64,000 bases of DNA from Gammaproteobacteria bacterium (GCA_009692265.1 SHZM01000006.1:3080-67079); one strand, 5' to 3'; numbered from the stretch's first letter, positions 7,152-58,153 are shown. Notes: generated by a model not told the origin, from the letters alone. Translations and numbers: made by a program.

Positions 7152-7161
7152 AGGTTCTAAT

Positions 7162-12697: not shown

Positions 12698-13920
12698 GTG
12701 ATGAGTCAGGTGCTAGGCATCGTCACTCGAGCCATCGCGAGTCATCTGATCAAAGCCGCCGGCTATCAACATGAGACGGCGCAGACTGGCGCGGTGACGT
12801 TGATTCAACGTTTCGGCAGCGCTTTGAACATGAACATCCACTTCCACATGCTGTTCCTCGACGGCGTGTATGTGACGAGCGGCGAGCGGTTGAGCTTTCG
12901 GCGGTTGCCGCCGCCAACCGTGGCCGCGCTTGAGAAGTTGGTTCGCGGGATCAGCGAGCGGGTCGGCCGCGCACTCGAACGCCAAGGGCTGCTGGTGCGG
13001 GACCTGGAAAACAGCTTTCTGACGCTGGGCTCCGCTGAAGGCTCGGGCTTCGATGACCTTTTGGGTCATTCCATCACCTACCGGATTGCGCTCGGTCCCC
13101 ACCAAGGCCGCAAGGCGTTTACGTTGCAGCCGGTGCCAGTAGTCACCGCAGCAGACGGCAACAGTTCCGTCGCGAAAGCAGCCGGGTTCTCGTTGCACGC
13201 CGGGGTGGCGTGCGAAGCACGAAGCACACGAGCGGGAGAAGCTGGAACGCCTGTGCCGCACTATCACGCGCCCGGCGGTCTCGACTGAGCGCCTGTCGCT
13301 CACAACCCAGGGGAATATTCGCTACCGTCTGAAAACGCCGTACCGGGATGGCACGACGGACGTGGTGTTTGAGCCGCTGGATTTGATGGCGCACCTCCCT
13401 GTGCGCCACCCTTCGGGCGACCTGCGGTCGTCCAAATCGGCAGTCCTGCCGATTTGTCATGGCCCGGCTGACCGCCTTAGGTAGCCGACGCCACGGGTCA
13501 ATCTCACGCGCTACCACGGCGTGTCGCGCCGAACCATCGACTGCGTGAACAAGTGACGCTGGCCCGGCGCGACCGGCGCAAGGCTGAGACTGCCGAAGAA
13601 CCTACTCCCGCGCGCCACGTCTCGATGACGTGGGCGCAACGGTTGAAGCGGATATTACTCCGGGCATCCTGCCCTTCGCCCTACGGGCCGGCCTGCGGCT
13701 GTTCCAATTCGCTCCAGGCGATTGGGTCAAGATCGACATCTTGACCTGCGAGCATTGTGGTGGTGCGGTCAAAGTGATCGCGAGCATCGAAGATCCTGCC
13801 GTGATCAAGAAAATCCTCGATCATCTCGAGCGGCGGGCCGAGCCCGCGACACCCGTATTCAGACCCTTCGCCCGCGCGCCGCCGCAGATGGCATTACCGG
13901 GACTGAAGGAACCGGGCTGA
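12698..13920 (+). mobile_element. tnpA: IS91-family (rolling-circle HUH) transposase remnant, frameshifted
   Basis: 'LIQRFGSALNMNIHFHMLFLDGVY' is the HUH motif region. 'NIRYRLKTPYRDGTTDVVFEPLDLMAHL' appears in a second frame. The C-terminus is 'CEHCGGAVKVIASIEDPAVIKKILDHL' in a third frame. Multiple frame changes indicate a pseudogene. Confidence 0.75.
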
Positions 13921-18803: not shown

Positions 18804-20132
18804 CGGGTCCTGTCAGGAATTATGTGTTTGTGAGCCATACTTTGATCCGGGGAGGATAGAGCATGGCAACGAAGAAAGCGTCGGCGTTCAGCGCCGAATC
18901 ATTGGATGAGCTGTTGGCTGATCAGGACCCTGGTACGGTCTTGAACTCGGATGGCTTTCTGGGAGATTTAAAGAAGGCCCTGGCAGAGCGGATGTTAAAT
19001 GCCGAGATGGATGTCCATCTTGGCCGTGAGTCTGAACGAGAGTCGGGTAACCATCGCAACGGGAGTAGTACCAAGACCGTACTGAGTGGTGACGGCGAAG
19101 TCGTATTGTCGATACCTCGCGACCGTCATGGTCGCTTTGATCCGGCGCTGATAGGCAAATATCAACGGCGGTTTCCAGGCTTCGACGAGAAGATTATCGC
19201 GTTGTATGGGCGGGGGATGAGCACGAGGGATATTCAGGCCCACGTGGGCGAACTATACGGCGTGACGATGTCACCGGATTTGGTGTGTGCGGTAACAGAA
19301 TCGGTGATGGAGGAAGTGCGCGCGTGGCAATCGAGACCCTTGGAAGCGACCTATGCGGTGGTCTTTTTTGACGCCTTGCGGGTGAAGATTCGGGACGAGG
19401 GAATGGTACGTAATAAAGCGGTGTATCTGGCGATTGGGATGCGCTGCTCGGGGCACAAGGAAGTCCTGGGGCTGTGGATTGAGCAGACGGAAGGCGCGAA
19501 ATTTTGGTTGCGCGTGATGAACGAGCTACGCGCACGCGGCCTGCAGGACATTTTGATTTCAGTGGTGGATGGGCTGAAGGGATTCCCGGAGGCGATCACC
19601 TCCGTGTACCCGGAGACCGTGGTCCAGACGTGCATCGTGCATCTCCTGCGTAATTCGCCCTATCTAGCTTCCTGGAAAGACCGCAAGGCGCTGACTGCGG
19701 CGCTGAAACCGATATACCAGGCCGATAGCCTGGAAGCCGCTGAGCGCGCGCTGACGGCCTTTGAAGCCGGTCCCTGGGGACAGCAGTTTCCGACGATTGC
19801 CGAAAGCTGGCGTCGTCACTGGGCGCACATCATTTCGTTTTTCGCGTTTGCGGCGCCGGTCCGCACCACCTTGTACACGACCAACGCGATTGAGAGTTTG
19901 CACAGCGGGGTGCGCAAAACGATTCGCAACAAAGGCCATTTCCCAAACGATGATTCCGCCACCAAACTCATCTGGTTGGCACTACGAAACATTACCGCGA
20001 AATGGGTCAATCCGCCTATCGCCTGGGCTCAAGCCAAGGCACAATTCGCGATACAATTCGGAGACCGATTCAGTGTCGCCGATTAATCAACAACGGCTCA
20101 CACACAAAATTTCTGACAAGCTCTCAGGCCCG
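18804..20132 (+). mobile_element. IS256-family insertion sequence (intact transposase CDS 18863..20086)
   Basis: 407 aa transposase with 'LDELLADQDP…DGFLGDLKKALAERMLNAEMDVHLG…VVDGLKGFPEAI…CIVHLLRNS', an IS256/mutator signature. Imperfect terminal inverted repeats at 18804-18836 ('cgggtcctgtcagg…gtgtttgtgagcc') and 20095-20132 ('ggctcacacacaaa…ctctcaggcccg'). Confidence 0.9.
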
Positions 20133-34624: not shown

Positions 34625-35020
34625 TCAGAGACTGCGGACAGGCATCCTTTCCCCCCGCGTGCGCCGCAAGCGCGTGGCGGCGCGGCTGGCGGCGGCTGGC
34701 GTGTCGAACGTCAGTGCTTCAAATATGATCAACGGGCGCGCGCGATCCGCGCTTAATTGGCCGACGCACCAGCGCCGCTCCGTTTCGGTACAGACCACCA
34801 CATACGCGCCTGGTAGCGGGCCGAAGTGCCGGTTATTGAGCGTAAAAAGACACTCCGCGAGTTGATTGAGTTTGTCCGGATCGAGCGTGCCGAGTAATGC
34901 AGACTCGAGTTTATTCGGGGTGCCCGCGAGCGCGGGCATCACATGTTTGCCGCGCGGTGGCGCGAGAGGCCGCCCCGGGTTCTGCTGCGGCGCCGGTTTT
35001 CGCGCGCGACGCGGACTCAC
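34625..35020 (-). CDS. Protein of unknown function (~131 aa), DMFase-cassette-associated, copy A
   Basis: GTG start overlaps the large-subunit stop (GTGA at 35017-35020). It is a paralog of 42499..42927 (shared 'GP.PG.YVvV…R..VGQL.AD.A.P…FE.L.F'). Confidence 0.6.
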   Translation of the reverse strand: MSPRRARKPAPQQNPGRPLAPPRGKHVMPALAGTPNKLESALLGTLDPDKLNQLAECLFTLNNRHFGPLPGAYVVVCTETERRWCVGQLSADRARPLIIFEALTFDTPAAASRAATRLRRTRGERMPVRSL

Positions 35021-37401
35021 GGCAATGGTCCTTTCTTGAGAAAGCCCTTGATCACGTTCTTCATCAGGCGCGACACGTTGTTGTCGTAATTGTGGTGGGA
35101 CAGTGCGCCACACCAGGCCAGCGAGCCGGGCGCGAAGACCGCCCCGTCATTCGGCGTCTTGTAGTAGATCATGTCCGCCCGAATCATCGGATTCTCATCG
35201 CCGCCGCCGTAAAAACCGCGCACCGAGAAGTGGACTTCCTCGTTGACCTGCAGCATGAGATCCGTATGGCCTTCGGAGCGCGCGAGAAGGAACGCGTGGT
35301 GCGGCGTGCCGAATTCCAGATCGTAGCGGTCGATCTCCAGGCCCGCGGCGCCGCCGCCGACGAGGCCGAAGTCACCGATCACCTCGTCCTGACCGATCCC
35401 TTGAAACATCCACGCGCATTCGGGCCGCAGGCTATCCGCTTCGCGCCGATAGTAAGTGGAAACATCGAAACCATAACCGGTGAACGTGAGTCCGCAGACT
35501 TTGCTCGGGATGCGACCGCGCGCCCGCCACATTCCGCCGTACTTGCCGTCAAATGCATTGTTGTATTCGCCCGGATTCGCGGTCCACGCGCGGGTACCGG
35601 CCTCGCCTTTGCGTACTTCGATGATATTGCTGTTGTCCGGATGGTACTGGCTGCACCAGTAAAAGCCGTTGGCACCGAGGTACATCCAGCGCCCGCCGCT
35701 GGCCTGGTAAGCCTCGTAGGCATTGAGCATGCGTTCGGAAGAGTACTCCGGATGGCTGCCCGTCAAGACCACCTGATAACGGGACAACAGCCCGAGTCCC
35801 TCGCGATCGAGATCCTCATCGGTATGCACATCGAACTCGAAATTCATCTGTTCGAGCCAATCGGTCAAATGCAGATCCGCGTTAAACTGCCATAACGACG
35901 GCGACAACCAGTGCCGATACTTCGGGCGCATGTTCAAGATCGGTCGCAGGCGCGAGCTGTAGCACACCCCACTGCCGTCCGAATGGCAGGAATAAGTGGA
36001 CAGACCGTATTCGCGATGCTCATTCAGATAGAGATCCGAAGCGTTCATGATCGGCACGCGCCCGGCCAGTAGCTGCGCGACGACGGAATTGGTGGCAAGG
36101 TTGTCGTTCGAATAGGCCATGTAGCTGTTGGTCGGCACGATGAACGCAATCTTCGCGGTCGCCGTCCCGCGCGGCGGCCGCACGAAGAACGGAATGTAGT
36201 CTTCGGTTTCCGGCGAATCCTTGCCACCGATCCGCAGGCGAGCCGCATAGGCCCCACTCTTCAAGGTGGTGGGCAAGGTATAGGTAAAATCCACTGCCCA
36301 CCGCGCATCGTCGAGGTCATCGTCATGGAAATGGATCGCGCCATACTCATGCGGAATGTGGTGATAGACGATATCGTCGCCGCTCCAGTTATAGCCGGTC
36401 ATGCCGCGGACCGGGAGATTGATGGCGAACCCATGCAACTGATTCGGTGAGATATCCACGATCTGGCACGAGGCGATATTAGTCGTGATGTTGGCGTGAA
36501 AATCCCAGGCACCCACCACGGCAATGCGCAGCTCCGCAGCGGCTCCCGCGAAGCCGCGCGCGAGCGCATCGATTTCTGCTTTCGAAAGTGCTCTATTCGA
36601 AATCCTGGGACGGTCGATTTTCCCGTTATAACACCAGACCTGTTCCGGCAGGGACACCGCGGAGATGGCCTCCTTGTAGTGACCCCCTTGAATGCTGCGT
36701 CCCGAGTCCGTCTCCGCGGTCGCCGCGGCGAACAGGACCGGCGCGTCATTCTTGGCCGGACCATGGGCGCTCTTGGTCTTTACCACTGCGCTAGTCTCGT
36801 GCGCAGGGTGCAGCAGCGCCATGCCGAGTCCGCCATTCGTCGATGACACGATCGGTTCCTGATACAGCACCACCTGCCCGGTGTCCGCGTCGTAGCTGGC
36901 CGCCACCAGGTACCATACCTTACGACGCAATGGTTTCCCGCTCGTGAGCGTGGTGAGCTTGCCGCGCGTCCCGCCGATCATCACAGTAAGACAACCCGCT
37001 TCATCAACAAACAGACCATAGCCGGACTTCCGGCCGACATCCCACTTGGTCACTACGCCCTGCATGCCTTTGTCATGGCAGTAGCCATGCGGTCCGGGGC
37101 CTGGGGTGGTGGGGAAAATAAAGGCCTGCACGGTGAAGCTTGCACAGTCCAGGCGTGAGTCGGCCGGTATCACTACATACGAGCCACCGTGAATCTTCTG
37201 CGGTCGCCCTTGGTAGCGTTGATTGCAGGGCGCTTTGATTTCTTTTTCCTTGAAACCAGGTCCTTCGGGATTCGTATCCCCATGGATTACACGCACGATC
37301 TGGACGTCGTAGCGCTCTCCCTTCTCGGCATTCACATAGAATTTGATCGTCTCGCCAGGACATGCGGAATACTTATCGCTGTAGCCGGTGATCCGAAGCA
37401 T
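35017..37401 (-). CDS. N,N-dimethylformamidase large (beta) subunit family protein, copy A
   Basis: 794 aa. It has the LamG-like central region and the conserved C-terminal catalytic region '…GGRWMYLGANGFYWCSQYHPD…YGGMWRARGR…' typical of DmfA2-family proteins. Preceded by a 'gagga' SD. Confidence 0.85.
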   Translation of the reverse strand: MLRITGYSDKYSACPGETIKFYVNAEKGERYDVQIVRVIHGDTNPEGPGFKEKEIKAPCNQRYQGRPQKIHGGSYVVIPADSRLDCASFTVQAFIFPTTPGPGPHGYCHDKGMQGVVTKWDVGRKSGYGLFVDEAGCLTVMIGGTRGKLTTLTSGKPLRRKVWYLVAASYDADTGQVVLYQEPIVSSTNGGLGMALLHPAHETSAVVKTKSAHGPAKNDAPVLFAAATAETDSGRSIQGGHYKEAISAVSLPEQVWCYNGKIDRPRISNRALSKAEIDALARGFAGAAAELRIAVVGAWDFHANITTNIASCQIVDISPNQLHGFAINLPVRGMTGYNWSGDDIVYHHIPHEYGAIHFHDDDLDDARWAVDFTYTLPTTLKSGAYAARLRIGGKDSPETEDYIPFFVRPPRGTATAKIAFIVPTNSYMAYSNDNLATNSVVAQLLAGRVPIMNASDLYLNEHREYGLSTYSCHSDGSGVCYSSRLRPILNMRPKYRHWLSPSLWQFNADLHLTDWLEQMNFEFDVHTDEDLDREGLGLLSRYQVVLTGSHPEYSSERMLNAYEAYQASGGRWMYLGANGFYWCSQYHPDNSNIIEVRKGEAGTRAWTANPGEYNNAFDGKYGGMWRARGRIPSKVCGLTFTGYGFDVSTYYRREADSLRPECAWMFQGIGQDEVIGDFGLVGGGAAGLEIDRYDLEFGTPHHAFLLARSEGHTDLMLQVNEEVHFSVRGFYGGGDENPMIRADMIYYKTPNDGAVFAPGSLAWCGALSHHNYDNNVSRLMKNVIKGFLKKGPLP

Positions 37402-37472: not shown

Positions 37473-37922
37473 TCAGCGCACTTTATGCCCGTAACTGGCC
37501 AGGAGTTCGTGCACCCGTTTGACGAAAATCGCGTGCTCACAGGAATCTTCGGATGGATAGGAGTCGGCGAAGATCTTGACCGGCTTGCCGCGCACGCCAG
37601 TACACATGCCAATGCGGTAATCGCGATGCGCGGCGACACAGATTCGCACGTACTTGCCGGCCATCGGCGCACGCCGGAGTTTGTCGATCACATGCGCAAG
37701 TTCTTCACTGTGCTGCACACCGGCCTTGCCACCTTTGCCCGGCAAGCCGATCGGGTTCTCGCAATGTTCAGCGAGCAGGCGCTCGCGCGTCGTGCGGTCG
37801 GTCAGCAGCGGGAGGACATGGGTGCGGGTAATGAAGTCATCCGTACTGGTATAACCCTGGTTGGTTTGGACGCCGGTCGGTTTGGTCGCCATCGTTCCTC
37901 CCAGGCTTTTTGACTCGTGCAA
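37473..37922 (-). CDS. Putative DMFase small (alpha) subunit-like protein, copy A
   Basis: ~140-149 aa gene directly upstream of the large subunit. It is a paralog of 45352..45783 (shared 'IDKLR…', 'EHAIFVKR'). The size matches the ~15 kDa DMFase alpha subunit. The assignment is by context. Confidence 0.55.
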   Translation of the reverse strand: MHESKSLGGTMATKPTGVQTNQGYTSTDDFITRTHVLPLLTDRTTRERLLAEHCENPIGLPGKGGKAGVQHSEELAHVIDKLRRAPMAGKYVRICVAAHRDYRIGMCTGVRGKPVKIFADSYPSEDSCEHAIFVKRVHELLASYGHKVR

Positions 37923-37993
37923 TACTTATAACACTGGCGTCCGGCAAAATGAAGGTTAGTTCTTTCAATGCGCAGAAACTTTCTCTACTCTCA
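37893..37993. promoter_or_regulatory. Divergent intergenic/promoter region between DMFase-like cassette A (minus) and the GS-like operon (plus)
   Basis: ~100 bp, locally AT-richer ('cttataacactggcgtccggcaaaatgaaggttagttctttcaatgcgcagaaactttctctactctcaatgcaacgt'). It is flanked by divergent start codons. Confidence 0.45.
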
Positions 37994-39364
37994 ATGCAAC
38001 GTATGAATACGACCCCGCTAAACTGGTCTGCCGCTTCGGGTACCGCGCTTAGCGACATTTTGGAGCGCGAGCGCATCGAGTTTGTGCACGCGGGGATCTT
38101 CGATACTGAAGGAGTGTTCCGCGAAAAGCGGTTGCCGGTGGCGCTGGCGCGCCGGTACCTGGCGGAGGGTTGGTCTTTCATCGACGCGCTGCCGTACTGG
38201 GGGCCCAACGACACGGTACGCGCGGACCGCGCTTATCGCAGCGAAGCCTGCCAGCTTGATGTCGCGAGTCTGCGCCCTTACCCGTTCGAACCTCACGCCG
38301 CGTTGCTGGTGGCGGACTACACCGGCGACAGCGCCGCGTTGTCGCCGCGGGCACTGCTCGCGGCCCAGATCGCGCGCGCGCACCAACTTGGCTTCGAACC
38401 CCTTGGCGCAAGCGAGTTCGAGTTCATCATTCTCGACGAAACGCCCGCTACGCTGAGCGCCAAGAATTTCGATCAGCTGCAGACGCTGGCACAGGAGAAT
38501 TGTTGCTGGTCGGGGCTATATCCGGCCGCGGGCGCAGAATTCCTGCGCGATTACGATCACTGTCTGCGGGCCGGGGATATTCCCCTGCATCATCTGTGCT
38601 CGGAACTGGGCCCGGGGTGCCTGGAAGCCGCGCTGCCCGTGCGCCAACTGGCGACGGCGGCGGACGATGCCGCACTTTTCAAGCTGTTCACCAAGGCGTT
38701 CTGCATTCAACGCAGTCTCACCGCTTCTTTCATGGCCCAGCTCTCGGATACGCATCCCGGACTGGGCGGGCATCCCAGCTTGTCGCTGCGCACGCGCACG
38801 ACTGACGTCGCCGCGTTCCATGCGGCCGACGATCCGCGCGGAATCTCGATCGTGTGCCGGCAATTTATCGCGGGCATCCTGCAAGCCTTGCCCGAACTCA
38901 TGCCGATGTTCGCCAGTACGGTGAATGCTTATCGCCGGTATGTGCCGGGCAATTGGGCGCCACGCACCGCGACCTGGGGGCTCGGGAATTACACCTGTGG
39001 TTTACGGGTGGTGGCTGGCGCGCCGGACGACTGTCGGATTGAATTTCGCTTGCCCGGCGCGGATACCAATCCGCACCTGGCCTTCGCGCTGATGCTCGGC
39101 GCCGGGTTGCGGGGAATCGAGCAAAATCTGCAACCCCCGCCTGAAACGACCGACATCGGCCGCGAGTTCGTGCATCCGGCGATCGGTCCGTTACCGCGCT
39201 CGCTGCTCGAAGCCGCCGAACGCATGCAGCGTAGTACGCTGGCGGCTGATTTGTTTGGGGCCGAGTTCGTGACCCATTTCACCCAGAGCTGTATTCAGGA
39301 AGACATCACAATGCGCCGGCACGTCGCGGCATTTGAACGCAAGCGTTACCTTCATCACGTATGA
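37994..39364 (+). CDS. Glutamine synthetase-like protein 1 (divergent GlnA-family paralog)
   Basis: It has the GS catalytic-domain layout ('GASEFEFII', 'NAYRRYVPGNWAPRTATWGLGNYTCGLRV'). The canonical HHE.APGQ.E region is replaced by 'HHLCSELGPGCLE'. Confidence 0.75.
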   Translation: MQRMNTTPLNWSAASGTALSDILERERIEFVHAGIFDTEGVFREKRLPVALARRYLAEGWSFIDALPYWGPNDTVRADRAYRSEACQLDVASLRPYPFEPHAALLVADYTGDSAALSPRALLAAQIARAHQLGFEPLGASEFEFIILDETPATLSAKNFDQLQTLAQENCCWSGLYPAAGAEFLRDYDHCLRAGDIPLHHLCSELGPGCLEAALPVRQLATAADDAALFKLFTKAFCIQRSLTASFMAQLSDTHPGLGGHPSLSLRTRTTDVAAFHAADDPRGISIVCRQFIAGILQALPELMPMFASTVNAYRRYVPGNWAPRTATWGLGNYTCGLRVVAGAPDDCRIEFRLPGADTNPHLAFALMLGAGLRGIEQNLQPPPETTDIGREFVHPAIGPLPRSLLEAAERMQRSTLAADLFGAEFVTHFTQSCIQEDITMRRHVAAFERKRYLHHV

Positions 39365-39405
39365 GCGTGGCGCTTTAAACCATCAGCACCCGGAGGAGCC
39401 TTGCT

Positions 39406-40872
39406 ATGACCGCATTGGAGAATTACGTCAAAGACACTGCGCGCGCGGAAGGCGTCAAGAAAGTCCGCGCGATGATCAAAGCGCTGGGCGTCGAGTACAT
39501 CTACTTCCAGTTCGTGTCGGTCACCGGGCGAATCGTCGGTAAGGGTGCGCCTGCCGATCACTGGGAGCGAATCGCCACTAAGGGCTTCCAGCTGGTCTAT
39601 GGTTCGACCGCCAATCTGTTCATCAGTCGCAAAGGGCGTTACCTCGGCTACGGGCCGGAGGCCCATGAGCTGGTCGGCATCGCAGATCCGGAAACGTTTG
39701 TGCAGTTGCCGTGGGAACCGCGCGTGGCGCGGGTGTTCTGCACCTTATTCCGCAATCGCGAAGAGCTGGTCGACCCCGGCGGCTATCTGAGCTCGGATTG
39801 CCGCGGCAATCTCACACGCGCCCATACCGCGTTCGAAAAAAAGCACGGCCTGCGGCTGCGGCTCGGCACCGAACCCGAAATGATGTGGTTGAAAAAGGGT
39901 GCCGACGGCAAACCCGCTGGCGGCGTCACCAAGCCTTATTGTTACCACATCGATCAGTTCGAAGAACTGCGACCGATCACGCTCAAGGTGACCGAGTACT
40001 GTCGCAAGATGGGTATTGACTGCATTCAGGGTGATCACGAAGACGCCCCCGGACAGCTCGAACTGAACTGGACGTACGACGATGTCGAGCGGACGTCCGA
40101 TCGGCTGACCACCTACCGTCAGATCTGCACGCAGGTGGCTCGCGAGTTCAACGTCATCGCGTGCTTCATGACCAAGCCTTTCATGAAAGTCTCGGCGAAC
40201 GGCTGTCACCATAATTTCTCGCTGTGGAAAGGCGGCAAGGACCAGGTGACTACCTTCGATGGCCTGTCGAAGTTCGGCATGTCCGAGGTGTTCACCTACG
40301 TCACGGGTGGCCAGAACAAATTCGATCCCGAAGGCAAGGATCTCCGCATGCCCGGGCCGATCGGCCAATGGGCCGCCGGCGGCATCGTTAAACACCTGCC
40401 AGCGCTGACTGCGCTCGGGGCGTCCACGGTGAACTCCTACCGGCGCCTGCTCGACCAGGGCTACTGGGCGCCCGTCTACAACAATTGGGGCTATCAGAAT
40501 CGGACCTGTGCGCTGCGCGTGTCCGCACCAGGGCGTTTCGAGTATCGTGCCGTCGATTCGATGGTCAATCCCTATTTGTTGAATGCAGCGTTGCTGGCGG
40601 TCATGGATGAAGGCATCAGCCAAAAGCTGGATCCCGGTCCGCTGGAGCAGCGCAATATCTACGAACTCGAACTCGCCGGGAAAAAAGTGGTGAAGCTGCC
40701 CACGAACCTCGGCATGGCGCTGGATGCGATGGAGGCCGATCCCTTGGTGCGCTCGGCGCTTCCGGGCGAGATGTGGGATGTGTTCATCGACTACAAACGT
40801 GATGAATGGGACAAATTTCTGGCGACGGTCACAGCCTGGGACCACGACACTTACATGGACTATCTGCCCTAG
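39406..40872 (+). CDS. Glutamine synthetase-like protein 2 (gamma-glutamyl-amine ligase type, GmaS/PuuA/IpuC-like)
   Basis: 'GDHEDAPGQLELNW', 'NSYRRLLDQGYWAPVYNNWGYQNRTCALRV' and 'EPEMMW' are canonical GS catalytic motifs. 488 aa. Confidence 0.85.
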   Translation: MTALENYVKDTARAEGVKKVRAMIKALGVEYIYFQFVSVTGRIVGKGAPADHWERIATKGFQLVYGSTANLFISRKGRYLGYGPEAHELVGIADPETFVQLPWEPRVARVFCTLFRNREELVDPGGYLSSDCRGNLTRAHTAFEKKHGLRLRLGTEPEMMWLKKGADGKPAGGVTKPYCYHIDQFEELRPITLKVTEYCRKMGIDCIQGDHEDAPGQLELNWTYDDVERTSDRLTTYRQICTQVAREFNVIACFMTKPFMKVSANGCHHNFSLWKGGKDQVTTFDGLSKFGMSEVFTYVTGGQNKFDPEGKDLRMPGPIGQWAAGGIVKHLPALTALGASTVNSYRRLLDQGYWAPVYNNWGYQNRTCALRVSAPGRFEYRAVDSMVNPYLLNAALLAVMDEGISQKLDPGPLEQRNIYELELAGKKVVKLPTNLGMALDAMEADPLVRSALPGEMWDVFIDYKRDEWDKFLATVTAWDHDTYMDYLP

Positions 40873-40887
40873 CCCGGAGCAAACATC

Positions 40888-41772
40888 ATGCGGGACTTCA
40901 GCCTTAGCGACGGACAGGTTACTGACTTCGAACGGGATGGCTTCATCACCGTCGATCGCATCATCGATGACGACGAAGTGGCACTCCTGCGTGCGCGCTA
41001 TGACGAGTTGTTCAAAGGTCACTGGGAAACCGGCCTGGTGCCCGACGAAGTAAACTGGCTGGAAGGACGCGATCCCCCCGATCACACCCGTCAAATCTGC
41101 AATGGCTGGAAATCCGATCGGTTTGTGGCGAGCGTCATCCTGCAGGAATCGATCGGCCGGGCCTGCGCTACGCTCGGCCGTTGGCCCGGGACCCGCATCA
41201 GCCAGGACAACATTCTGTGGAAGCCGCCAGGCGGCAAACCGTTAGGGTTCCATCAAGATTCTGCCTACGAACAATGGACGAACCTGCCGGACTGGGTGAG
41301 CTGCTGGATTGCGCTCGATGACACCAGCGCCGAAGGTGGCACGGTTGAGTATGTGCGGGGATCGCACCGCTGGGGCCAGTCCGGCATGATCGAGCAGTTT
41401 CATGCGCCGCAGAACCCGGTCAAAGACCTCGAAAAAGCCGCCGCTGCGGCGGGGGTTACGCAGATCGAGCGGGTGCCGATCGTCGTCAAAGCCGGCGGCG
41501 GCGCGTTTCATGGCGGCTGGACCTGGCACGGCTCGGACGTCAACCGCTGCGAGGTCCCGCGCCGTTCGATCGTGGCCCATTGCATGTCCTCCGAAACCCG
41601 CTTTCATCCGACCTATGTCGGCTATATCTACAGCCGGTACAAACGTTTCGGCGATGACACCATGGATGAAGCCTTTTTCCCAATTCTGTGGCGCCAGGAT
41701 GGCTACCGCTCACCGTTCATTGCACCCTACGCCGCACGGCACATTACCTGGGGCGAAGCGCTGCCGGCGTGA
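40888..41772 (+). CDS. Phytanoyl-CoA dioxygenase (PhyH) family Fe(II)/2-oxoglutarate dioxygenase
   Basis: 'WKPPGGKPLGFHQDSAYEQW' (HxD) and 'GGAFHGGWTWHGS' (distal His) form the PhyH fold. The stop overlaps the next gene's GTG. Confidence 0.85.
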   Translation: MRDFSLSDGQVTDFERDGFITVDRIIDDDEVALLRARYDELFKGHWETGLVPDEVNWLEGRDPPDHTRQICNGWKSDRFVASVILQESIGRACATLGRWPGTRISQDNILWKPPGGKPLGFHQDSAYEQWTNLPDWVSCWIALDDTSAEGGTVEYVRGSHRWGQSGMIEQFHAPQNPVKDLEKAAAAAGVTQIERVPIVVKAGGGAFHGGWTWHGSDVNRCEVPRRSIVAHCMSSETRFHPTYVGYIYSRYKRFGDDTMDEAFFPILWRQDGYRSPFIAPYAARHITWGEALPA

Positions 41773-42482
41773 GGCGCCGGCTCGGCCTGCTGGCCTGCGA
41801 CAGCATCTGGGAACCCCTGCGTTCCCGTTTTGGCGATTACGCCGAGATGTACACCGCGCTGCTCCAGGCGGCCGGTGCCGACTTCGAACTCAAGGTTTTT
41901 GCGGTTCATCGAGGCGTGCTGCCGGCGCATCCGAGGGACTGCGATGCGTGGCTGATCTCCGGCTCGCGCGCCGGGGTGTATGACGCCCAACCCTGGATCG
42001 CGACCTTGCAGAATTTCGCACGTGCGGCGCATGCGATCGAGGTCCCCCAGGTCGGGATCTGTTTCGGTCATCAGTTGCTGGCACAGGCTCTCGGTGGCCG
42101 CGTCGAACGCGCGGCCACCGGCTGGGGTCTCGGCAATCTTGAGGTCGAACTGCGCGGCGAGTCGGCGTACCCGGCACCGACGTCCGGTCCGCTCCGGTTG
42201 TTCATGGCGCATCAAGATCAGGTTGTGACCCTGCCACCCGACGCGCAGTGGCTGGCCGCGGCGGCGCATTGCCGCCACGCTGCGTTCGCGCTGGGTGAGC
42301 AGGTGCTGGGCGTCCAGGCGCATCCCGAGTTCACGGCTGACTTCATGCGGGAGATGACCCTCGAAGCGACGTTCGAAATCCCGCCCGCCGTGCGCGCCGC
42401 GGCGCTCAGCAGTTTTGCTAAGCCGGTCGACAGCGCCGTTATCGGGCGCTGGATCGCCACTTTTCTGGGGCTGCTCAGCTGA
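41769..42482 (+). CDS. Class I glutamine amidotransferase-like protein (gamma-glutamyl-amide hydrolase type, PuuD/IpuF-like)
   Basis: 'VGICFGHQLLAQALGG' holds the catalytic Cys and 'VQAHPEF' the His. GTG start gives a GTGA overlap with PhyH. Confidence 0.75.
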   Translation: MRRRLGLLACDSIWEPLRSRFGDYAEMYTALLQAAGADFELKVFAVHRGVLPAHPRDCDAWLISGSRAGVYDAQPWIATLQNFARAAHAIEVPQVGICFGHQLLAQALGGRVERAATGWGLGNLEVELRGESAYPAPTSGPLRLFMAHQDQVVTLPPDAQWLAAAAHCRHAAFALGEQVLGVQAHPEFTADFMREMTLEATFEIPPAVRAAALSSFAKPVDSAVIGRWIATFLGLLS

Positions 42483-42498: not shown

Positions 42499-42927
42499 TT
42501 AGCGGCAGCTGAGCTGCGCCGCCGCGCGGAGTTCTGTCGCCTTGGCGCGCGCCTTCGCTTCGCTCGCGAACACCAGATCCTCGAACAACTGCACCGGCGC
42601 GGCCGGATCCGCACACAGTTGCCCGACCGCATAACGCCCGGATGCCACTGCGACAATCACATAAAAGCCGCGCACCGGGCCGGGTCGCGCACCGTTGAGG
42701 CGATACAGCACTTTGGCAAGATCGGCGAAGTGGCTGTCATCTTCGACCACCGCCTCGACGCGTGTCGGCGGCGCATCGGAGCGCACCCAGCGATGCGGCA
42801 TTTCTCCGGCGTCGCTGGTGAGCGGTAGTGCTTGCTCGCCGCGATAGGCCGGATGCAGCCACCAGGTCTCATCGCGTTTCAGCGGGACTTCGGCGGCCGC
42901 TTTGACTTTCGAGCGGCGGGGGTTCAC
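42499..42927 (-). CDS. Protein of unknown function (142 aa), DMFase-cassette-associated, copy B
   Basis: ATG overlaps the large-subunit stop (ATGA). Paralog of 34625..35020. Confidence 0.6.
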   Translation of the reverse strand: MNPRRSKVKAAAEVPLKRDETWWLHPAYRGEQALPLTSDAGEMPHRWVRSDAPPTRVEAVVEDDSHFADLAKVLYRLNGARPGPVRGFYVIVAVASGRYAVGQLCADPAAPVQLFEDLVFASEAKARAKATELRAAAQLSCR

Positions 42928-45368
42928 GGCAGAGGACCGTTCTTCAGGAAGCCATCAAGCGTATTGCGCATCAACCGCGACACGTTGTTGTCGTAGCGAT
43001 TGTGCGACAGCGAGCCGCACCAGGCCATCGAGCCGACCGAAAACACCGCGCCGTCATTCGGGGTCTTGTAGTAGACGATGTCCGCACGGGTGCGCGGATT
43101 GTTGTCCCCCGTGCCGCCGGCGATATACCCGCGCGCGTTAAAAGTTGACTCTTCGGTGACCGAGACGAACATGTCGGAATGACCTTCTGAATTTGCGAGC
43201 AAATAGGCGCGATGCGGCGTGCCCAGTTCCAGATCGTAGCGATCGAGTTCGAGCCCGGCCGCGCCATCCCCGACCAGGCCGAAGTTCCCGATCGGCTCGT
43301 CACGCGCAATGCCTTTGAACATCCACTTGCATTCGGGCAGTTCGCTGTCCGGCGCCCGGCGGTAGTACGAGGAGTAAGTCAAGCCGAACGACGTGAACGT
43401 GACGCCGAGAATCTTGCTCATGACCCTGCCGCGTACCCGCCACAGGCCACCATGCTTGCCGTCGAACGCATTGCAGTATTCGCCGGGCGCGATGGTCCAG
43501 GCACGGGTCCCGTTGTCGCCTTTGCGCACTTCGACAATGTTCGGGTTCTCCGGGTGGGGCTGACAGATCCAGTAAAAGCCGTTCGCGGCGAGATACATGA
43601 AGCGGCCGCCGGCCTGCTGGTAATCGTGATACGCCTGCATCTGCTGCTCGGACACATACTCCGGATGATGGCCGGTCAGCACGATGCGGTACTGGTTCAA
43701 CAGCGCTACGCCTTCACGCTGCACGTCTTCGTCGGTCAGGATGTCCAAGTCGTAATTCATCTCGTGCAGCCAGTCGACCAGATGCAGATCCGCATTGAAC
43801 TGCCAGAGCGACGGCGACAACACATGCACGTATTTGGGACGCATATTCAGAATCGGGCGCAGCCTGGACGAAATATTCACGCCCCAGCCGTCGCGGTAGG
43901 ACGTATAAGTGCCAAGCCCGTAACCGCGCTCTTGGTTCAGCAGCAGATCACCCGGCTGCAGCAGCGGCACCTGGCCCGTCAGCAGTTGCGCGATCACGGA
44001 ATTCACGCTCAAGTTATCGTTCGCATAGGCGAGGTAGCTGTGCATCGCCATCACGAGCGCGATTTTCGCGGTCGGGCCGCTGGCCGGCGGGCGCACGAAG
44101 AACGGGACATAATCCTCGTACTCAGCGCTGGTGGAGCCATTCACACGCAAGCGCGCGGCATACACCCCGCTTTTGAGATTGGCCGGAACTTTGAACGTGA
44201 ACGACGGCGCCCAGCGCGCGTCGTCGACCGACTCATCGTGAAAATGAATCGCGCCATATTCTTGCGGGGCGTGACGGAAGCTCATGTAGTCGGAAGACCA
44301 GTTGCAGCCGGTGACCCCGCGCACCGGCAGATTGACGCCGACGCCGTGCAGATGGTTCGGGCCCGTATCCACGATGTGCGTCGAGGCCGCGTTATCCGCG
44401 ATGTTCGCGCTGAAATCCCAGGCCCCGACCACTGCGCCGCGCAGTTCGCCGGGGATGTTTTCACAACCGGCTGACGCCAGCAGCATTTCCACCTCGGCCG
44501 CGCTGAGCGCGCGATTCGCGAGCTTAGGGCGTTCGATCTTGCCGTTGTATTTCTGGGTGTGGACCGGGATCTCCCACGGCATCGGGAGATGCTTGAAGTG
44601 GCCACCATGCAGCGTGCGCCCGGAGTGGGTCTCCAGCGTGCTGGCTGCAACCAACAGCGGACAATCGCTCGTACGCGGGCCGGCGCTGCGGGTGCGATAA
44701 CACGCGCTCCCGGCGGTGTCGTCGAGCGGGTGCAGCATGCTGAGGCCATGGCCACCATTCGTGATCGTCACGAACGGGGTCTGCCACACGCGAATCTCGC
44801 CGCTTGCCGCATCAAACGTGGCCGCCACCTTGTACCAGACCTTGCGAAACAGCGGTTTGCGGGTCGCGTATTCTTCAACCTTGCCGCGGCCGCGCCCGAT
44901 GCGGAGCGCCAGTTCACCACTTTCGTTGATGAACAGGCCATAGCCGACGCCCGTGGACGTGTTGAATTTAGAGATAATCGCCTGCGCGCCCACCGCCACA
45001 CCCTCGGTATCGACCAGCGGCGTGGTGGGATAGACGTAGGCGCACAAAGTGAAACTCTGCACGTCGAGCCGTGCATCGTGCGGCACCATGACATAGCTGC
45101 CGGCATACACCGCCTGATGCTGACCGCGATAGCGGCGATTAGTAGCGCTGCGGACCAGTTTTTCCTTGAATCCCGGCCCCTCCGGGTTCGTATCTCCGTG
45201 AATCAACCGCACGATGTCGGCCTGATACGGTTCGTCGAACTCGCTGTGCACGTGGAAAGTGACTTCTTCGCCCGGGCGGACCGAACACCGATCGGTGTAG
45301 CCGGTCACGCGCAGCATCATTGGTTGGGTGTTTGCCATGCGGATCAGCCTTTCAGGATTCGATGCCAT
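42924..45368 (-). CDS. N,N-dimethylformamidase large (beta) subunit family protein, copy B
   Basis: ~800 aa and collinear with copy A throughout ('MLRVTGYTDRCSVRPGEE…', '…GGRFMYLAANGFYWICQPHPEN…'). The start is likely the internal ATG at 45338 or 45320. Confidence 0.85.
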   Translation of the reverse strand: MASNPERLIRMANTQPMMLRVTGYTDRCSVRPGEEVTFHVHSEFDEPYQADIVRLIHGDTNPEGPGFKEKLVRSATNRRYRGQHQAVYAGSYVMVPHDARLDVQSFTLCAYVYPTTPLVDTEGVAVGAQAIISKFNTSTGVGYGLFINESGELALRIGRGRGKVEEYATRKPLFRKVWYKVAATFDAASGEIRVWQTPFVTITNGGHGLSMLHPLDDTAGSACYRTRSAGPRTSDCPLLVAASTLETHSGRTLHGGHFKHLPMPWEIPVHTQKYNGKIERPKLANRALSAAEVEMLLASAGCENIPGELRGAVVGAWDFSANIADNAASTHIVDTGPNHLHGVGVNLPVRGVTGCNWSSDYMSFRHAPQEYGAIHFHDESVDDARWAPSFTFKVPANLKSGVYAARLRVNGSTSAEYEDYVPFFVRPPASGPTAKIALVMAMHSYLAYANDNLSVNSVIAQLLTGQVPLLQPGDLLLNQERGYGLGTYTSYRDGWGVNISSRLRPILNMRPKYVHVLSPSLWQFNADLHLVDWLHEMNYDLDILTDEDVQREGVALLNQYRIVLTGHHPEYVSEQQMQAYHDYQQAGGRFMYLAANGFYWICQPHPENPNIVEVRKGDNGTRAWTIAPGEYCNAFDGKHGGLWRVRGRVMSKILGVTFTSFGLTYSSYYRRAPDSELPECKWMFKGIARDEPIGNFGLVGDGAAGLELDRYDLELGTPHRAYLLANSEGHSDMFVSVTEESTFNARGYIAGGTGDNNPRTRADIVYYKTPNDGAVFSVGSMAWCGSLSHNRYDNNVSRLMRNTLDGFLKNGPLP

Positions 45369-53776: not shown

Positions 53777-54301
53777 CTACGGCACCTGAGTGCAGACTAG
53801 ACCGAGTACCTTTTCAAACGCCTGGTCGGCAAGGGCTCGCATCTCCTCATCGGTCCGATCTTGAATCGGATGCGCCACAAACAAATTATCCGGATGAAAG
53901 CCGACCGCTTCGCCCTGCGTTATCGCCGCCGTCTTGAATACTTCGGAGGCGATAAAACCGCCGGGGATACCACGACTGTCGAGCTCTCTGATGTCATGCA
54001 AACTGCACGACGTACAGGAACCTCAGTCTGCCAATCCTTCGACCACGACATCACATTGACTGGCAATTTCTTGCACCAGACTGATCGGCGCAGGCCGCGT
54101 AAACGTGGGTTTTTTATAGCGCTTCGTACTCACGCCGCGGAGATTAAACAGTTGCTCGATTCGATCGAGAAATACGTTACCGCGCGCTTTAGAGATATCG
54201 AGCAGGCCGACGGTCAAACCGGTCAGCGAAGCGGGCTTTGTCAGCGGCGCACGCTGTATCGGATCGAGTTCGCCCGTAGGGTCCAGCAATATTGCCTTCA
54301 T
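53777..54301 (-). CDS. Candidate UGSC-family selenoprotein (in-frame TGA at 54023-54025)
   Basis: The minus strand reads 'MKAILLD…VVEGLAD-TGA-GSCTSCSLHDIRELD…LGLV'. The TGA sits inside a U-G-S-C-T-S-C (UxxCxxC) motif. A 7-8 bp hairpin begins 11 nt 3' of the TGA. The ATG overlaps the upstream gene's stop (ATGA). If TGA is a true stop, this is instead a 92-codon ORF. Confidence 0.5.
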
Positions 54302-55746
54302 GGTGTAATCTCCTTGGTAACGGGATCCGTGCCTAACGATCCCTTCATCAGCCACCCGGGGATGATAGCGGAAAAAAGTCCGGCCGCACCGCCAGCGCGC
54401 ACCAGACTCAAACCGCCGTGACGAAACTTGGGCATTGTGGGCGGAACATCGGCGACACTAACCAGCGCCTTATCGGTGCCCATGCCGAGATCTTGCGCCG
54501 GAATCTGTAAGTGCTCGTGTAGCGCCGCGACTACCTCAGCCTTACTCCAACCAGCTTCATCAAACACCCGCCCATGCTCAGGACCGATAACAATCACCAC
54601 GTCCGCCGCATTAGCGATGTCGATATGATTAATGCCGCGCAGACTGCCAGCCAGCGAATAAATTAGCCCGGCGGGTGCGCGTGATTTCTGATCAAGGCAA
54701 CCGAGCGGGCCGTCAGCGCTAAACAGCGTCACGCTCGATCGCTCGCGGCTGATGCCATGATCTTCAGCCAGGGTCGTCCACGGCGTGTTTTCGTCTTCAG
54801 CAAAGCAAAACGTGTATTTAGCCGGTGTACCGAAAGTCGATTGATCGGCCTCCAGCGGTTTACCGCCACCAACGTTGCGCACCACCAATTGCAGCGCTCG
54901 GCCAATCGTTGCGTTGGCGCGATTACCCTGTCCCAGGACGTTGCCTTGCCAGTTCATTCCGATGGCTTCCCGCACGGGGCCATTCACGATGATCATCGGC
55001 GCTGAAAACCAGGTCGTTGCCAATAGGCCGTGCAGACAGAACACCGGATCTAACGCGGCCTCGACCGCCGCGAGCACGACCGGTAAGTACTCAGGTTTGC
55101 AGCCCGCCATGACCGCATTAATGGCGACTTTCTCCACGCTACAAGGAGAAAGATTAGGCGGCATCGCGCCGAGAATTTCGTTGGGATCGCGCGTGGTCCC
55201 TGTGAGCATCCGATAAACTCTTTCTTCAGTGGGAGGAACAAGCGGTAGCCCGTCGCTCCAACCGCGTTCGAAACACCATTCAAACTCATCTTCGAGTGGG
55301 GGCACTTCAATCCGTCGCGCCTGCATTGTGCGGGTGCCATAACGCACCGCCAAACGCTCGGCAATCCCAGGTTCAACGGAGACCGATCCACAGCCGGGTC
55401 GGTATGCCGGCAATTCGGGGGCCAGCGCGGCTAGTCCCGTAAGTGCCTCCCACTCCGCTCGCTGCCACCCGACGGCGCGCGCTGCTTCGCGGCCGTCGGT
55501 GATTCGAATCAAGGTCGGTACGGTTTCGATCCCGAGCCGAAAGGAATATTCCAGTCCGCGATCGTCAATGACGTGCGAGTTCGACGAGAAAGTCGGATCG
55601 TCTTGGACGTAGACAGTGACCGATAGCCCACGGCTCTCGATACTTTTCAGGATAGGGTCGACCAATAGGCAGGTGGGGCAGTCGCGCTTGACGACCGCGA
55701 TGAGGCCTTCGGGGAATTGCATTATCAGCGCTCTACTTGGGCTCAC
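54298..55746 (-). CDS. Thioredoxin-fold (CPTC) N-terminal domain protein with large C-terminal domain of unknown function
   Basis: 'VVKRDCPTCLLVDPIL' is a CxxC thioredoxin/glutaredoxin-like motif. 482 aa. It is translationally coupled to the UGSC gene. Confidence 0.6.
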   Translation of the reverse strand: MSPSRALIMQFPEGLIAVVKRDCPTCLLVDPILKSIESRGLSVTVYVQDDPTFSSNSHVIDDRGLEYSFRLGIETVPTLIRITDGREAARAVGWQRAEWEALTGLAALAPELPAYRPGCGSVSVEPGIAERLAVRYGTRTMQARRIEVPPLEDEFEWCFERGWSDGLPLVPPTEERVYRMLTGTTRDPNEILGAMPPNLSPCSVEKVAINAVMAGCKPEYLPVVLAAVEAALDPVFCLHGLLATTWFSAPMIIVNGPVREAIGMNWQGNVLGQGNRANATIGRALQLVVRNVGGGKPLEADQSTFGTPAKYTFCFAEDENTPWTTLAEDHGISRERSSVTLFSADGPLGCLDQKSRAPAGLIYSLAGSLRGINHIDIANAADVVIVIGPEHGRVFDEAGWSKAEVVAALHEHLQIPAQDLGMGTDKALVSVADVPPTMPKFRHGGLSLVRAGGAAGLFSAIIPGWLMKGSLGTDPVTKEITP

Positions 55747-55799: not shown

Positions 55800-56951
55800 T
55801 TAGAAACCCCTCAATTTCGCGTACCGATCGCGGTGAAAGCTCGCATCGCCAAACAGCTGCTGAGCGACTCGCGCGCGCTTGAGGAAAAAGCCGATCTCTT
55901 CCGCATCGGTCATCCCGATCCCGCCATGCAGTTGGACCGCCTCGTTCGAAACCAATTCCAGGGTTTCGCTGGCCTTCGCTTTAGCCAGGCTCGCCAATAA
56001 CGCGAGGTCACTCGTCCGCTCATCGAGTGCGCTTAGTGCTGCGATAACAGCGGACTTCGTTAATTCAATCTCACAAAACATCAACGCCGCGCGATGCTTT
56101 AGCGCCTGGAAAGATCCGATCGGTACCCCGAACTGAGTCCGCAGGTTTAGGTAGGCGCGCGTGCGATCAAAGGCTTCCAGCGCGCTTCCCAACATCTCGG
56201 CGGCGAGACCGCTGCGCGCGCCGTCGAGCACCGGCTCGAGCAGGTTATACCCCGCATTGCACTCGCCCAACACGGCCTGCGCGCTGACTTCGACATTGGA
56301 GAATTGGAGGTTTGCGGCATTCCGAGAATCGACCATCGTCGTCCGTTGACAGGTGATTCCTTCGCACCGCGTATCAACGAGGAATAGCGTTAAGCCGCGC
56401 GGATCGTCGTCCGCGGCACCGGTACGCGCGACGACGATCAACTGATCCGCAACGTGACCGTCGAGCACACAGGTTTTGTTCCCGCTCAGACGATAGCCGG
56501 CGCCGGTGCGCTCGGCGCGCGTCGTAATCCGACACGGCTGATGTCGCGAGCCTTCTTCAAAGGCGAGCGCGACAATTCGCTCGCCAGTCGCAATCGCCGT
56601 CAGCGCATCGTCCTTTTGCGCGGCACTCCCACCGACCGCGATCAGCGGCGCCGCCGTCAGGGCTGTGGAGACTAGCGGCGATGCCGCCAGTTGGCGACCG
56701 GATTCTTCGAAGATCTGCCCAATTCCACGATAGCCGAAAGCGGTACCGCCGTATTCTTCCGGAATCAGGATTCCAGCCCAACCGAGTGCGGCCATCTCTC
56801 GCCAACGTTCACGATCGAATCCGACCGGATCGTTATCGTCCCGTAATTTTCGTAACGTATTGATTGGCATTTTCTGAGTGAAGAAATCGTGTGCTGATTG
56901 TTTCAGCATCGTCTCTTCTTCCGTTAGTACCAGTGCGGCCTGGGCGATCAT
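55800..56951 (-). CDS. Acyl-CoA dehydrogenase family protein
   Basis: ACAD-like C-terminus '…QLHGGIGMTDAEEIGFFLKRA'. The start at 56951 forms an ATGA overlap with the upstream ACAD. Confidence 0.8.
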   Translation of the reverse strand: MIAQAALVLTEEETMLKQSAHDFFTQKMPINTLRKLRDDNDPVGFDRERWREMAALGWAGILIPEEYGGTAFGYRGIGQIFEESGRQLAASPLVSTALTAAPLIAVGGSAAQKDDALTAIATGERIVALAFEEGSRHQPCRITTRAERTGAGYRLSGNKTCVLDGHVADQLIVVARTGAADDDPRGLTLFLVDTRCEGITCQRTTMVDSRNAANLQFSNVEVSAQAVLGECNAGYNLLEPVLDGARSGLAAEMLGSALEAFDRTRAYLNLRTQFGVPIGSFQALKHRAALMFCEIELTKSAVIAALSALDERTSDLALLASLAKAKASETLELVSNEAVQLHGGIGMTDAEEIGFFLKRARVAQQLFGDASFHRDRYAKLRGF

Positions 56952-58153
56952 TCGGGCAGGCCCAAGACATTTTTCGCGATCACGTTCAGCTGGATCTCCG
57001 AAGTACCACCTTCGATCGAATTCCCCTTCGAGCGCAGCCATTGCCGACACACGGTCAGCTCCTCGGGCTCGAACCCTTCGCCTTCCCAACCGAGTGCGTT
57101 CATGCCCACGCATTTAAGGATCAATTCGAACTTTCGCTTGTTCTGTTCGGTGCCGTAATACTTGAACATGGAAGACGTGCCGCCATTCGCCGCACCGACC
57201 GCACTTTCTTGCCCGGCACGACGTAGCGAGAGTTCAAAGGCGTGATCATTCATTACGTGTTGAGCGACCGCATCGCGTAGCACGGGATCCGCGATCCTGC
57301 CGTCTGCATCGCCGAGGTATTTCCTAGCAACAATCTCAACCGATGGCACTGTGCCTCCGATAGCGCGACCAATCCGCGAGATCATCCCGCGTTCGTGCTG
57401 TAACAGCTGTTTCGCGATCTCCCAGCCACCGTTGACCTTGCCAATCAAATTCCGTTTTGGGACTTGGACATTGTCGAAAAACGTTTCGCAAAACACCGAG
57501 CCGCCACTGATCAATTTAATTGGACGGGTCTCGACCCCCGGGCTTTGCATATCAAACAGCAGAAAACTGATACCACCTTGCTTGGTGGTGGTATCTGTGC
57601 GCACGAGACAAAAAATCCAATCGGCGTAATTCGCGTAGGAAGTCCAAATCTTCTGTCCATTGACAAGGTAATGATCACCGCAGTCCTCGGCGCGCGTCTG
57701 TAGACTCGCTAAATCCGAGCCGGCGCCCGGCTCGCTATAACCCTGACACCATCGAATTTCGCCACGTGCGATCGGCGGCAAGTGTTCGGCCTTCTGCGCG
57801 ATGGTGCCGTATTGTAGAAGGACCGGACCGAGCATGCTGATCCCGAAACCAAAGAGCGGCGTGCGACAGTTCAAACTCTGCATTTCTTCCGTGAGGATCA
57901 GCGCCTCCTCGGGTGTAAGTCCACCACCACCATATTCCCTGGGCCATCTCGGCACGGTCCAGCCGCGCTCGACCATACAGTCGAACCACAGCTTGCTATC
58001 AGGCTGCGCAAAACTAGGATTTCGTCCACCCCAGACTCGTTCCTCGTCGGGAAGAGGGGTGCGCATTGAGTGCGGGCAATTCGCCTCCAACCAGGCGCGG
58101 GTGTCTGTTCGGAAGCTATCGAGCATAGTCATCGAGGTTCCTTTGTCGCACAC
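56948..58153 (-). CDS. Acyl-CoA dehydrogenase family protein
   Basis: 'GYSEPGAGSDLASLQTRAE…YLVNGQKIWTSYANYADW' is an ACAD signature. It pairs with the downstream ACAD, like a heteromeric FadE alpha/beta pair. Confidence 0.8.
   Translation of the reverse strand: MCDKGTSMTMLDSFRTDTRAWLEANCPHSMRTPLPDEERVWGGRNPSFAQPDSKLWFDCMVERGWTVPRWPREYGGGGLTPEEALILTEEMQSLNCRTPLFGFGISMLGPVLLQYGTIAQKAEHLPPIARGEIRWCQGYSEPGAGSDLASLQTRAEDCGDHYLVNGQKIWTSYANYADWIFCLVRTDTTTKQGGISFLLFDMQSPGVETRPIKLISGGSVFCETFFDNVQVPKRNLIGKVNGGWEIAKQLLQHERGMISRIGRAIGGTVPSVEIVARKYLGDADGRIADPVLRDAVAQHVMNDHAFELSLRRAGQESAVGAANGGTSSMFKYYGTEQNKRKFELILKCVGMNALGWEGEGFEPEELTVCRQWLRSKGNSIEGGTSEIQLNVIAKNVLGLPE

Follow-up and report, generated by a model that had tools for sequence, protein, structure and literature searches.

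Introduction

UGSC has counted among the known selenoprotein families from the mid-2000s onwards (about 2005-2008). A UGSC-containing selenoprotein was noted in Hyphomonas neptunium and in an Olavius symbiont (PMC1976440), and in the Global Ocean Sampling (GOS) data UGSC was the fifth most abundant selenoprotein family, with 255 selenocysteine (Sec) forms and 21 cysteine (Cys) forms (PMC2398784). A 2026 review places UGSC among the families with functions that are “largely uncharacterized” (PMC13188914). Here we describe another member of this family. It is encoded on the minus strand of a 64,000-nt stretch of DNA from a Gammaproteobacteria bacterium (GCA_009692265.1, SHZM01000006.1:3080-67079), which we refer to as the window; positions are counted from its first nucleotide.

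The motif UxxCxxC, which UGSC carries, is also the Sec context of the selenoproteins GrdB/F/H (PMC13188914; PMC6778437). In Geodermatophilaceae, selenoproteins with the UGSC motif are reported to have UAG recoded as Sec by a tRNA-Sec(CUA) (PMC5330540). For the bacterial selenocysteine insertion sequence (SECIS) the published consensus is a stem of 4-16 bp, a loop of 3-9 nt with a G within its first two positions, a UGA-to-loop distance of 16-37 nt and a minimum free energy of ≤ -7.5 kcal/mol (PMC13188914, Fig. 2 legend). An initial annotation of the window had proposed a probable UGSC selenoprotein with an in-frame TGA and a SECIS-like hairpin at the right spacing, and had pointed to the shared motif of reductase selenoprotein B.

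A UGSC gene with an in-frame UGA

The best joint explanation of our data is that 54301..53777 encodes a 174-residue Sec-containing UGSC protein that is decoded by means of a SECIS and would serve as catalytic subunit together with a partner protein, and we consider this reading very probable. On the minus strand the frame runs from MKAILLD...VVEGLAD (92 codons) through the TGA at 54025-54023 into GSCTSCSLHDIRELD...TQVP (81 codons) and ends at a TAG. All of these elements sit where the initial annotation had placed them. Its expectation that gene callers would split or truncate the gene was also borne out: the public record for the gene, MSR13450.1, stops at 92 aa and is named “hypothetical protein”, and in other contigs the two halves are called separately.

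The genetic code of this genome is standard. TGA is not reassigned: of 24 genes in the window that have a family annotation, 12 end with it, among them the one directly upstream of UGSC, and it is the commonest ordinary stop. Scanning the window for other read-through TGA candidates gave off-frame, Arg-rich noise only, and the candidate that was inspected, at 13918, looks non-coding.

The product was scored against family models with Cys replacing the TGA. It passed the NCBIfam equivalog model NF041046, “UGSC family (seleno)protein”, with 130.6 bits (curated cut-off 125) and the Pfam model PF24696, “UGSC”, with 123.3 bits (cut-off 25, E = 1.5e-35). The Pfam match covers residues 5-169 and spans both sides of the TGA. 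The family assignment made from the motif was thus correct. With the family as described from the GOS and Olavius symbiont data the gene shares, besides its passing of both curated models, the U/C-G-S-C at the same column, the Sec/Cys dichotomy, a SECIS in the coding region and the dominance of Sec forms, and we found no defining difference.

Conservation of the Sec column and of the downstream frame

A homologue search of 5.8 billion proteins returned matches of two kinds, about 20 full-length proteins (171-191 aa) and about 100 proteins of ~96 aa that match the N-terminal half only. Nearly all of the short homologues (97/99) end in ...[IV]E[AG]LAD, one residue before the TGA of the window, and 18 full-length homologues read LAD/LSD/LAV-CGSCTSC at the TGA column. 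Short entries that end at this column, together with full-length Cys forms, are the expected signature of a Sec/Cys family in which the Sec forms are cut by gene callers. Cys or Sec is also what the initial annotation had predicted for the column. G94, S95, C96, T97, S98 and C99 are invariant across the 21 aligned sequences, and the motif is shared by the 80 loci that were analysed at the DNA level.

We also scanned one genome per GTDB species, which gave at least 593 loci; the DNA-level analysis was carried out on the best 80. These span Gammaproteobacteria, Alphaproteobacteria, Acidimicrobiia, other Actinomycetota, Chloroflexota, Nitrospirales and others, and the nearest relative, 76% identical, is found in a gammaproteobacterial metagenome-assembled genome (MAG) from Lake Baikal. 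The matches of the relatives cover query residues 1-169 or more and run through the TGA. At the Sec column 79 of the 80 loci have TGA and one has TAG. Beyond the TGA the open frame extends by a median of 80 codons and a minimum of 55 (79 loci measured). Differences from the window at codon positions 1, 2 and 3 amount to 0.26, 0.23 and 0.56 downstream of the TGA and to 0.32, 0.23 and 0.64 upstream. This similar excess of third-position substitutions shows that both halves are under the same protein-coding selection. Homologues that end at the TGA with nothing conserved beyond it, or a downstream part that lacks coding conservation, had been named as observations that would speak against a selenoprotein; neither was what we found.

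Some variants of the column were observed. The TAG occurs in an Actinomycetota MAG (MFD02581.bin.2.65; L055:10270-10272), where the hairpin and the downstream frame are intact and no tRNA-Sec was found within 10 kb of UGSC. It could be a further case of Sec-UAG or a long-read sequencing error. Among metagenomic homologues, P0001 has Trp at the Sec column (TGG with an intact hairpin, L087:333-848) and P0004 has Arg; both substitutions probably reflect errors at a single base or recent mutation of a Sec form.

A SECIS hairpin constrained at synonymous sites

The hairpin 5′-GUCGUGCA-GUU-UGCAUGAC-3′ at 54011..53993 begins exactly 11 nt 3′ of the UGA. Folded alone it has a free energy of -9.1 to -10.6 kcal/mol. 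Its 56-nt context folds with -21.4 kcal/mol (z = -2.8 relative to dinucleotide shuffles, 1 of 200 being as good). With a stem of 8 bp (core 6), a loop of GUU or AGUUU and a spacing of 19 nt it lies within all of the published limits for bacterial SECIS elements, in accordance with the initial annotation. As in the Escherichia coli fdhF-type SECIS and the bSECISearch consensus, the stem-loop is located in the open reading frame (ORF) just 3′ of the UGA, with an apical G-U, a distance of 19 nt from UGA to loop and sufficient stability. In contrast to these, it forms a short, compact structure in which a bulged U is not evident, and no Rfam family covers it. An Rfam search of the whole window at gathering thresholds and of a 201-nt region at E ≤ 10 detected no SECIS or tRNA-Sec family, only one chance match to SAM-VI (E = 7).

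As the stem consists mostly of codons of an invariant peptide, its sequence conservation is unusually high. Four pairs follow from the invariant S-C...H-D codons, which leaves the wobble-wobble pairs as the informative ones, and three stem pairs do link two third-codon positions. Of the stem cells in 70 distinct Sec-form sequences, 98.4% are paired, and two wobble-wobble pairs show compensatory changes. Pair 18-30 is G-C in 36 of these sequences, G-U in 31 and A-U in 3, and is broken in none; pair 21-27 is C-G in 66, U-A in 3 and U-G in 1. When no structure was given, RNAalifold recovered the core stem 16-21/27-32 with zero broken pairs (71 sequences). The loop codon is always AGU (Ser) or UGU (Cys) in Sec forms, so that G23-U24 is invariant.

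As a control we used five distinct Cys-form genes that code for the same T-S-C-x-x-H-D peptide. Here pair 18-30 is broken in three and pair 21-27 in two, and none has the G-U loop. The hairpin free energies are -1.5 to -7.2 kcal/mol in the Cys forms vs. a mean of -11.2 kcal/mol (range -12.4 to -7.1) in the Sec forms, and the contrast is significant (Fisher p = 1.5e-4 and 6e-8). This is the prediction for an RNA element that is needed only in Sec decoding. Thus, the identification of the UGA as a Sec codon, and of the hairpin as its bacterial SECIS, is strongly supported.

A partner gene precedes UGSC

The gene directly upstream encodes a 474-aa protein, which we refer to as the partner (Table 1). 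A stop and a start codon overlapping as ATGA are a classic arrangement for translational coupling. Because the TGA stop of the partner gene overlaps the ATG of UGSC in this way (ATGA, 54301..54298), the two are probably translationally coupled. Four-nucleotide overlaps between the two were seen among called genes in seven related contigs. Of 86 loci, with Sec and with Cys forms, 85 have a partner homologue that is encoded on the same strand as UGSC and has its 3′ end before the Sec codon. The pairing was also seen from the partner side, where both of the sampled partner homologues precede a split UGSC gene.

No family was found for the partner in Pfam or NCBIfam, and its thioredoxin-fold region scores under the Pfam thresholds. 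The N-terminal domain nevertheless combines a thioredoxin fold with a CxxC motif. This it has in common with the thioredoxin-fold domains that are fused to catalytic domains (TlpA/ResA/DsbE-like, MPT53), from which the partner differs in having no evident signal peptide or membrane anchor and in being fused to a C-terminal domain of ~345 residues. For this C-domain we found neither a described family nor a solved relative.

The profile of the whole partner, searched against 1.84 billion representatives, matched 6,852 clusters (50% identity). The C-domain also occurs as a stand-alone protein of ~350 aa, and the one example that was examined has a split Sec-form UGSC gene immediately before it. 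Tandem duplications of ~710-740 aa are found as well (P0264, P0276, P0283, P0297). Three natural proteins of 534-561 aa (P0333, P0357, P0375) contain UGSC followed by the C-domain in a single chain, with Pfam UGSC matches of E = 1e-34 to 1e-46. Of the UGSC motif, distant fused forms retain just the first, Sec-equivalent Cys, and their AGC-x-PEY cysteine (C208 here) is always kept. A “UGSC/Unknown_1 fusion” is mentioned in the GOS paper (PMC2398784). The three fusions probably represent this form, in which case Unknown_1 would be the partner C-domain. In one further protein, P0366 (551 aa), the C-domain is joined to an unrelated N-terminal domain of ~200 residues.

Over 85 loci the recurrent neighbours are the partner and lineage-specific genes only. 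A neighbour cluster present at 77 loci was rejected as a conserved gene, since it is made up of antisense shadow ORFs inside the partner gene. In the window, two genes for acyl-CoA dehydrogenases follow further upstream. Such genes occur within ~9 kb of UGSC in only 26 of the 85 loci and at varying positions, and their membership in the module is therefore not established.

Table 1. Positions of the UGSC gene, its decoding signals and the adjacent genes in the window.
Feature	Position	Strand	Details and evidence
UGSC-family selenoprotein gene, complete	54301..53777	minus	174 codons (92 + Sec + 81), then TAG
In-frame UGA, selenocysteine, residue 93	54023..54025	minus	Conservation of the column and Cys homologues
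U-G-S-C-T-S-C redox motif (UxxCxxC), residues 93-99	54005..54025	minus	Alignment, AlphaFold2 model
Bacterial SECIS hairpin within the coding sequence	53993..54011	minus	8-bp stem, loop GUU at 54003..54001; core 6 bp, loop A-G-U-U-U
Shine-Dalgarno sequence AAGGAG of UGSC	54310..54315	minus	Sequence; 8 nt 5′ of the UGSC ATG, within the end of the partner gene
Partner gene, 474 aa	55722..54298	minus	100% identical to MSR13451.1 (annotated “thioredoxin”); alternative GTG start at 55746
Partner thioredoxin-fold domain, ~residues 1-100	55423..55722	minus	CPTC motif at 55680..55669
Partner C-terminal domain, ~residues 130-474	54301..55335	minus	No described family; invariant Cys C208 (55101..55099) in AGCKPEY
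Two acyl-CoA dehydrogenase genes (PimC/PimD-like, under equivalog cut-offs)	55800..58132	minus	NCBIfam and Pfam, gene calls of this cluster; directly upstream, 77 nt from the partner ATG

The module lies beside Sec machinery in relatives

Of 15 tRNAs located within 10 kb of UGSC in relatives, nine are tRNA-Sec, and a tRNA-Sec is found within 4 kb of UGSC at nine loci. In Halopseudomonas pachastrellae JCM 12285 the gene order is partner, UGSC, selA (570 bits), selB (401 bits) and tRNA-Sec, and in two Actinomycetota MAGs the module is flanked by selD, selA, selB and tRNA-Sec. The position of the partner-UGSC module beside selA, selB and tRNA-Sec suggests that the selenoprotein is co-inherited with its decoding machinery. 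For this particular host we infer that the Sec machinery is present.

Loci at which the module adjoins selA, selB and tRNA-Sec were seen in Halopseudomonas, Marinobacter, Pseudohongiella and the two Actinomycetota MAGs, the actinobacterial loci having selD as well (L072:8526-13880; L035, L049, L054, L062, L071, L080, L059, L074).

Predicted fold of UGSC

AlphaFold2 was used to model the structure of P0002, which occurs naturally as a Cys form and shares 58% identity with the window protein (predicted local distance difference test score, pLDDT, 90.9). In the model five strands alternate with five helices, and the Sec-equivalent Cys is located between strand 91-97 and the N-terminus of helix 100-115. 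No thioredoxin was found among the top 60 fold matches of the model, and UGSC itself did not qualify as a member of the thioredoxin fold. UGSC is predicted to have a flavodoxin/Rossmann-like fold and not a thioredoxin-like one.

Alternative explanations

A number of points weigh against a SECIS-decoded selenoprotein that acts with the partner. No tRNA gene, and thus no tRNA-Sec, was found in the 64-kb window, and none of selA, selB and selD was found among its ORFs of at least 150 aa. Experiments on selenium incorporation were found neither for this gene nor, in the literature searched, for the UGSC family; the papers found are all computational catalogues. The conserved T-S-C...H-D peptide dictates four of the eight stem pairs, and the mere presence of the hairpin is therefore weaker evidence than the behaviour of its synonymous sites. 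At two pairs, six cells are all that there is of independent covariation. With its five distinct sequences the Cys-form control is small, and one of them (L086:3285-3330) retains a SECIS-like hairpin of 7 bp whose loop contains a G; this is compatible with a recent conversion from Sec to Cys. The structural model is that of a homologue and not of the window protein itself, and clustering of neighbours over the 85 loci found no third conserved gene. Lastly, the proposed mechanism of a two-subunit enzyme is deduced from linkage, fusion, the position of the motif and predicted folds.

The absence of sel genes and tRNA-Sec from the window could also mean that the TGA is a plain stop. The gene would then be a decaying remnant or would code for a truncated 92-residue protein, in a genome from which the Sec machinery was lost or always absent, and the downstream frame would be untranslated. 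The public annotation agrees with this, and single-base variants of the column occur elsewhere, such as the TGG in L087. However, the 81 downstream codons are intact and show the same third-position excess as those upstream, and the TGA is kept in 79 of 80 loci. The wobble pairs and the G-U loop of the SECIS are intact here, whereas they are decaying in genes that do not need them, and a product of 92 residues would be without the invariant GSCTSC..HD and HP.Q motifs. We therefore consider a plain stop very unlikely. Still less credible, to the point that we give it almost no weight, is the synthesis of two polypeptides, one of 92 residues from the N-terminal ORF and one of 74 residues from a C-terminal ORF, with re-initiation at the TTG at 54001. 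An ORF 54001..53777 does exist in the mechanical sense, and gene callers have called two halves in other contigs. Re-initiation at the TTG would, however, delete the invariant UGSCTSC motif. Moreover, a single chain runs uninterrupted through this region in the Cys-form homologues and in the UGSC fusions, and the AlphaFold2 model is one compact domain with the motif at a central strand-helix junction.

Two further alternatives concern the function of the protein. The GOS authors suggested that UGSC is a thioredoxin-like redox protein, as UxxC resembles CxxC redox motifs (PMC2398784). The absence of thioredoxins from the top 60 fold matches does not support this suggestion from 2008, and we regard it as improbable. 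UGSC could also be a divergent homologue of selenoprotein B (GrdB/PrdB), with the partner as the substrate-activating subunit (GrdE/PrdA). The initial annotation was right about UxxCxxC as the Sec context of reductase selenoprotein B (PMC13188914; PMC6778437), which U93-x-x-C96-x-x-C99 of UGSC fits. UGSC resembles GrdB/F/H and PrdB also in having a dedicated partner subunit and a thioredoxin-type reduction. The sequence similarity, however, is confined to the motif: UGSC gave no match to Pfam GRDB (PF07355) at E ≤ 10, where the speed filters of HMMER may hide very weak ones. In contrast to these selenoproteins UGSC is much smaller (174 aa) and is found in other hosts and another gene context, and the partner is not GrdE/PrdA-like by any search. 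Neither GrdA/GrdC/GrdE, PrdA nor other reductase-complex genes were seen near UGSC at the 85 loci, at which neighbours were annotated only via cluster representatives. The hosts belong mostly to lineages that are usually regarded as aerobic (Pseudomonadales, Acidimicrobiia) rather than to Stickland fermenters. This relation to selenoprotein B and its partner thus appears unlikely to us.

A possible mechanism and its implications

For the Sec-decoded UGSC protein, the established bacterial mechanism would have SelB-GTP with Sec-tRNA(Sec) bind the hairpin on the translating mRNA and bring Sec to the UGA, which would give U93-G-S-C96-T-S-C99. UGSC may then be the Sec-bearing catalytic subunit of a two-protein redox enzyme of the cytoplasm, with the upstream 474-aa protein as the other subunit. 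At the strand-to-helix junction of the flavodoxin/Rossmann-like fold, the Sec would probably attack a substrate or a disulfide that is held by the partner C-domain near its AGC-x-PEY cysteine. C96 and C99 would act as resolving thiols for the selenenyl-sulfide, with the thioredoxin domain of the partner as the reductant that restores the reduced state.

As a more tentative extension, which we regard as possible but not likely, UGSC and the partner C-domain could constitute a widespread, uncharacterised two-subunit selenoenzyme that comes in three arrangements (thioredoxin-C-domain then UGSC; UGSC then C-domain; fused). Where selA-selB-selC adjoin, this enzyme might be a principal reason for keeping the Sec machinery. 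A role in acyl-CoA metabolism is possible, because acyl-CoA dehydrogenase, MaoC and enoyl-CoA hydratase genes are recurrent, if not universal, neighbours.

Relative to the literature that could be searched, the additions made here are a systematic partner, three architectures, a predicted fold other than that of thioredoxin and a linkage with selAB-selC. The annotation of the locus should be corrected: MSR13450.1, a 92-aa “hypothetical protein”, becomes a 174-aa UGSC family selenoprotein, and the neighbour labelled “thioredoxin” becomes a two-domain protein of 474 aa. UGSC is among the most abundant predicted selenoproteins of aquatic metagenomes, and the question of its function is now more tractable. 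A near-obligate partner has been identified through adjacency, reciprocity and Rosetta-stone fusions, and Sec93 of UGSC and Cys208 of the partner are two candidate catalytic residues. Cultured hosts are available for genetics in Halopseudomonas pachastrellae and Marinobacter lacisalsi, with the module clustered with selA-selB-selC.

Other features of the window

Two large ORFs at 35017-37401 and 42924-45368, both on the minus strand and of 794 and 814 aa, have no NCBIfam match at E ≤ 1e-25. Remnants of mobile elements are found at 12698-13288 and 18863-20086; they comprise a fragment of an ISCR-like transposase and a transposase of the IS256 family that is intact (386 bits, over the cut-off), with short or unannotated ORFs in between. 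At 5133-9126 there is a hydantoinase/caprolactamase-like pair of A and B subunits, which scores under the equivalog cut-offs. A similar hydantoinase A/B pair adjoins the partner-UGSC module at two loci (L088, L089), which may be a coincidence. The region 37910-42482 contains two adjacent glutamine-synthetase-like paralogues (type III / gamma-glutamylputrescine-synthetase-like, under cut-offs) and, after them, a 294-aa ORF without an NCBIfam match and next a class-I glutamine amidotransferase, and may be a catabolic cluster that operates by gamma-glutamylation.
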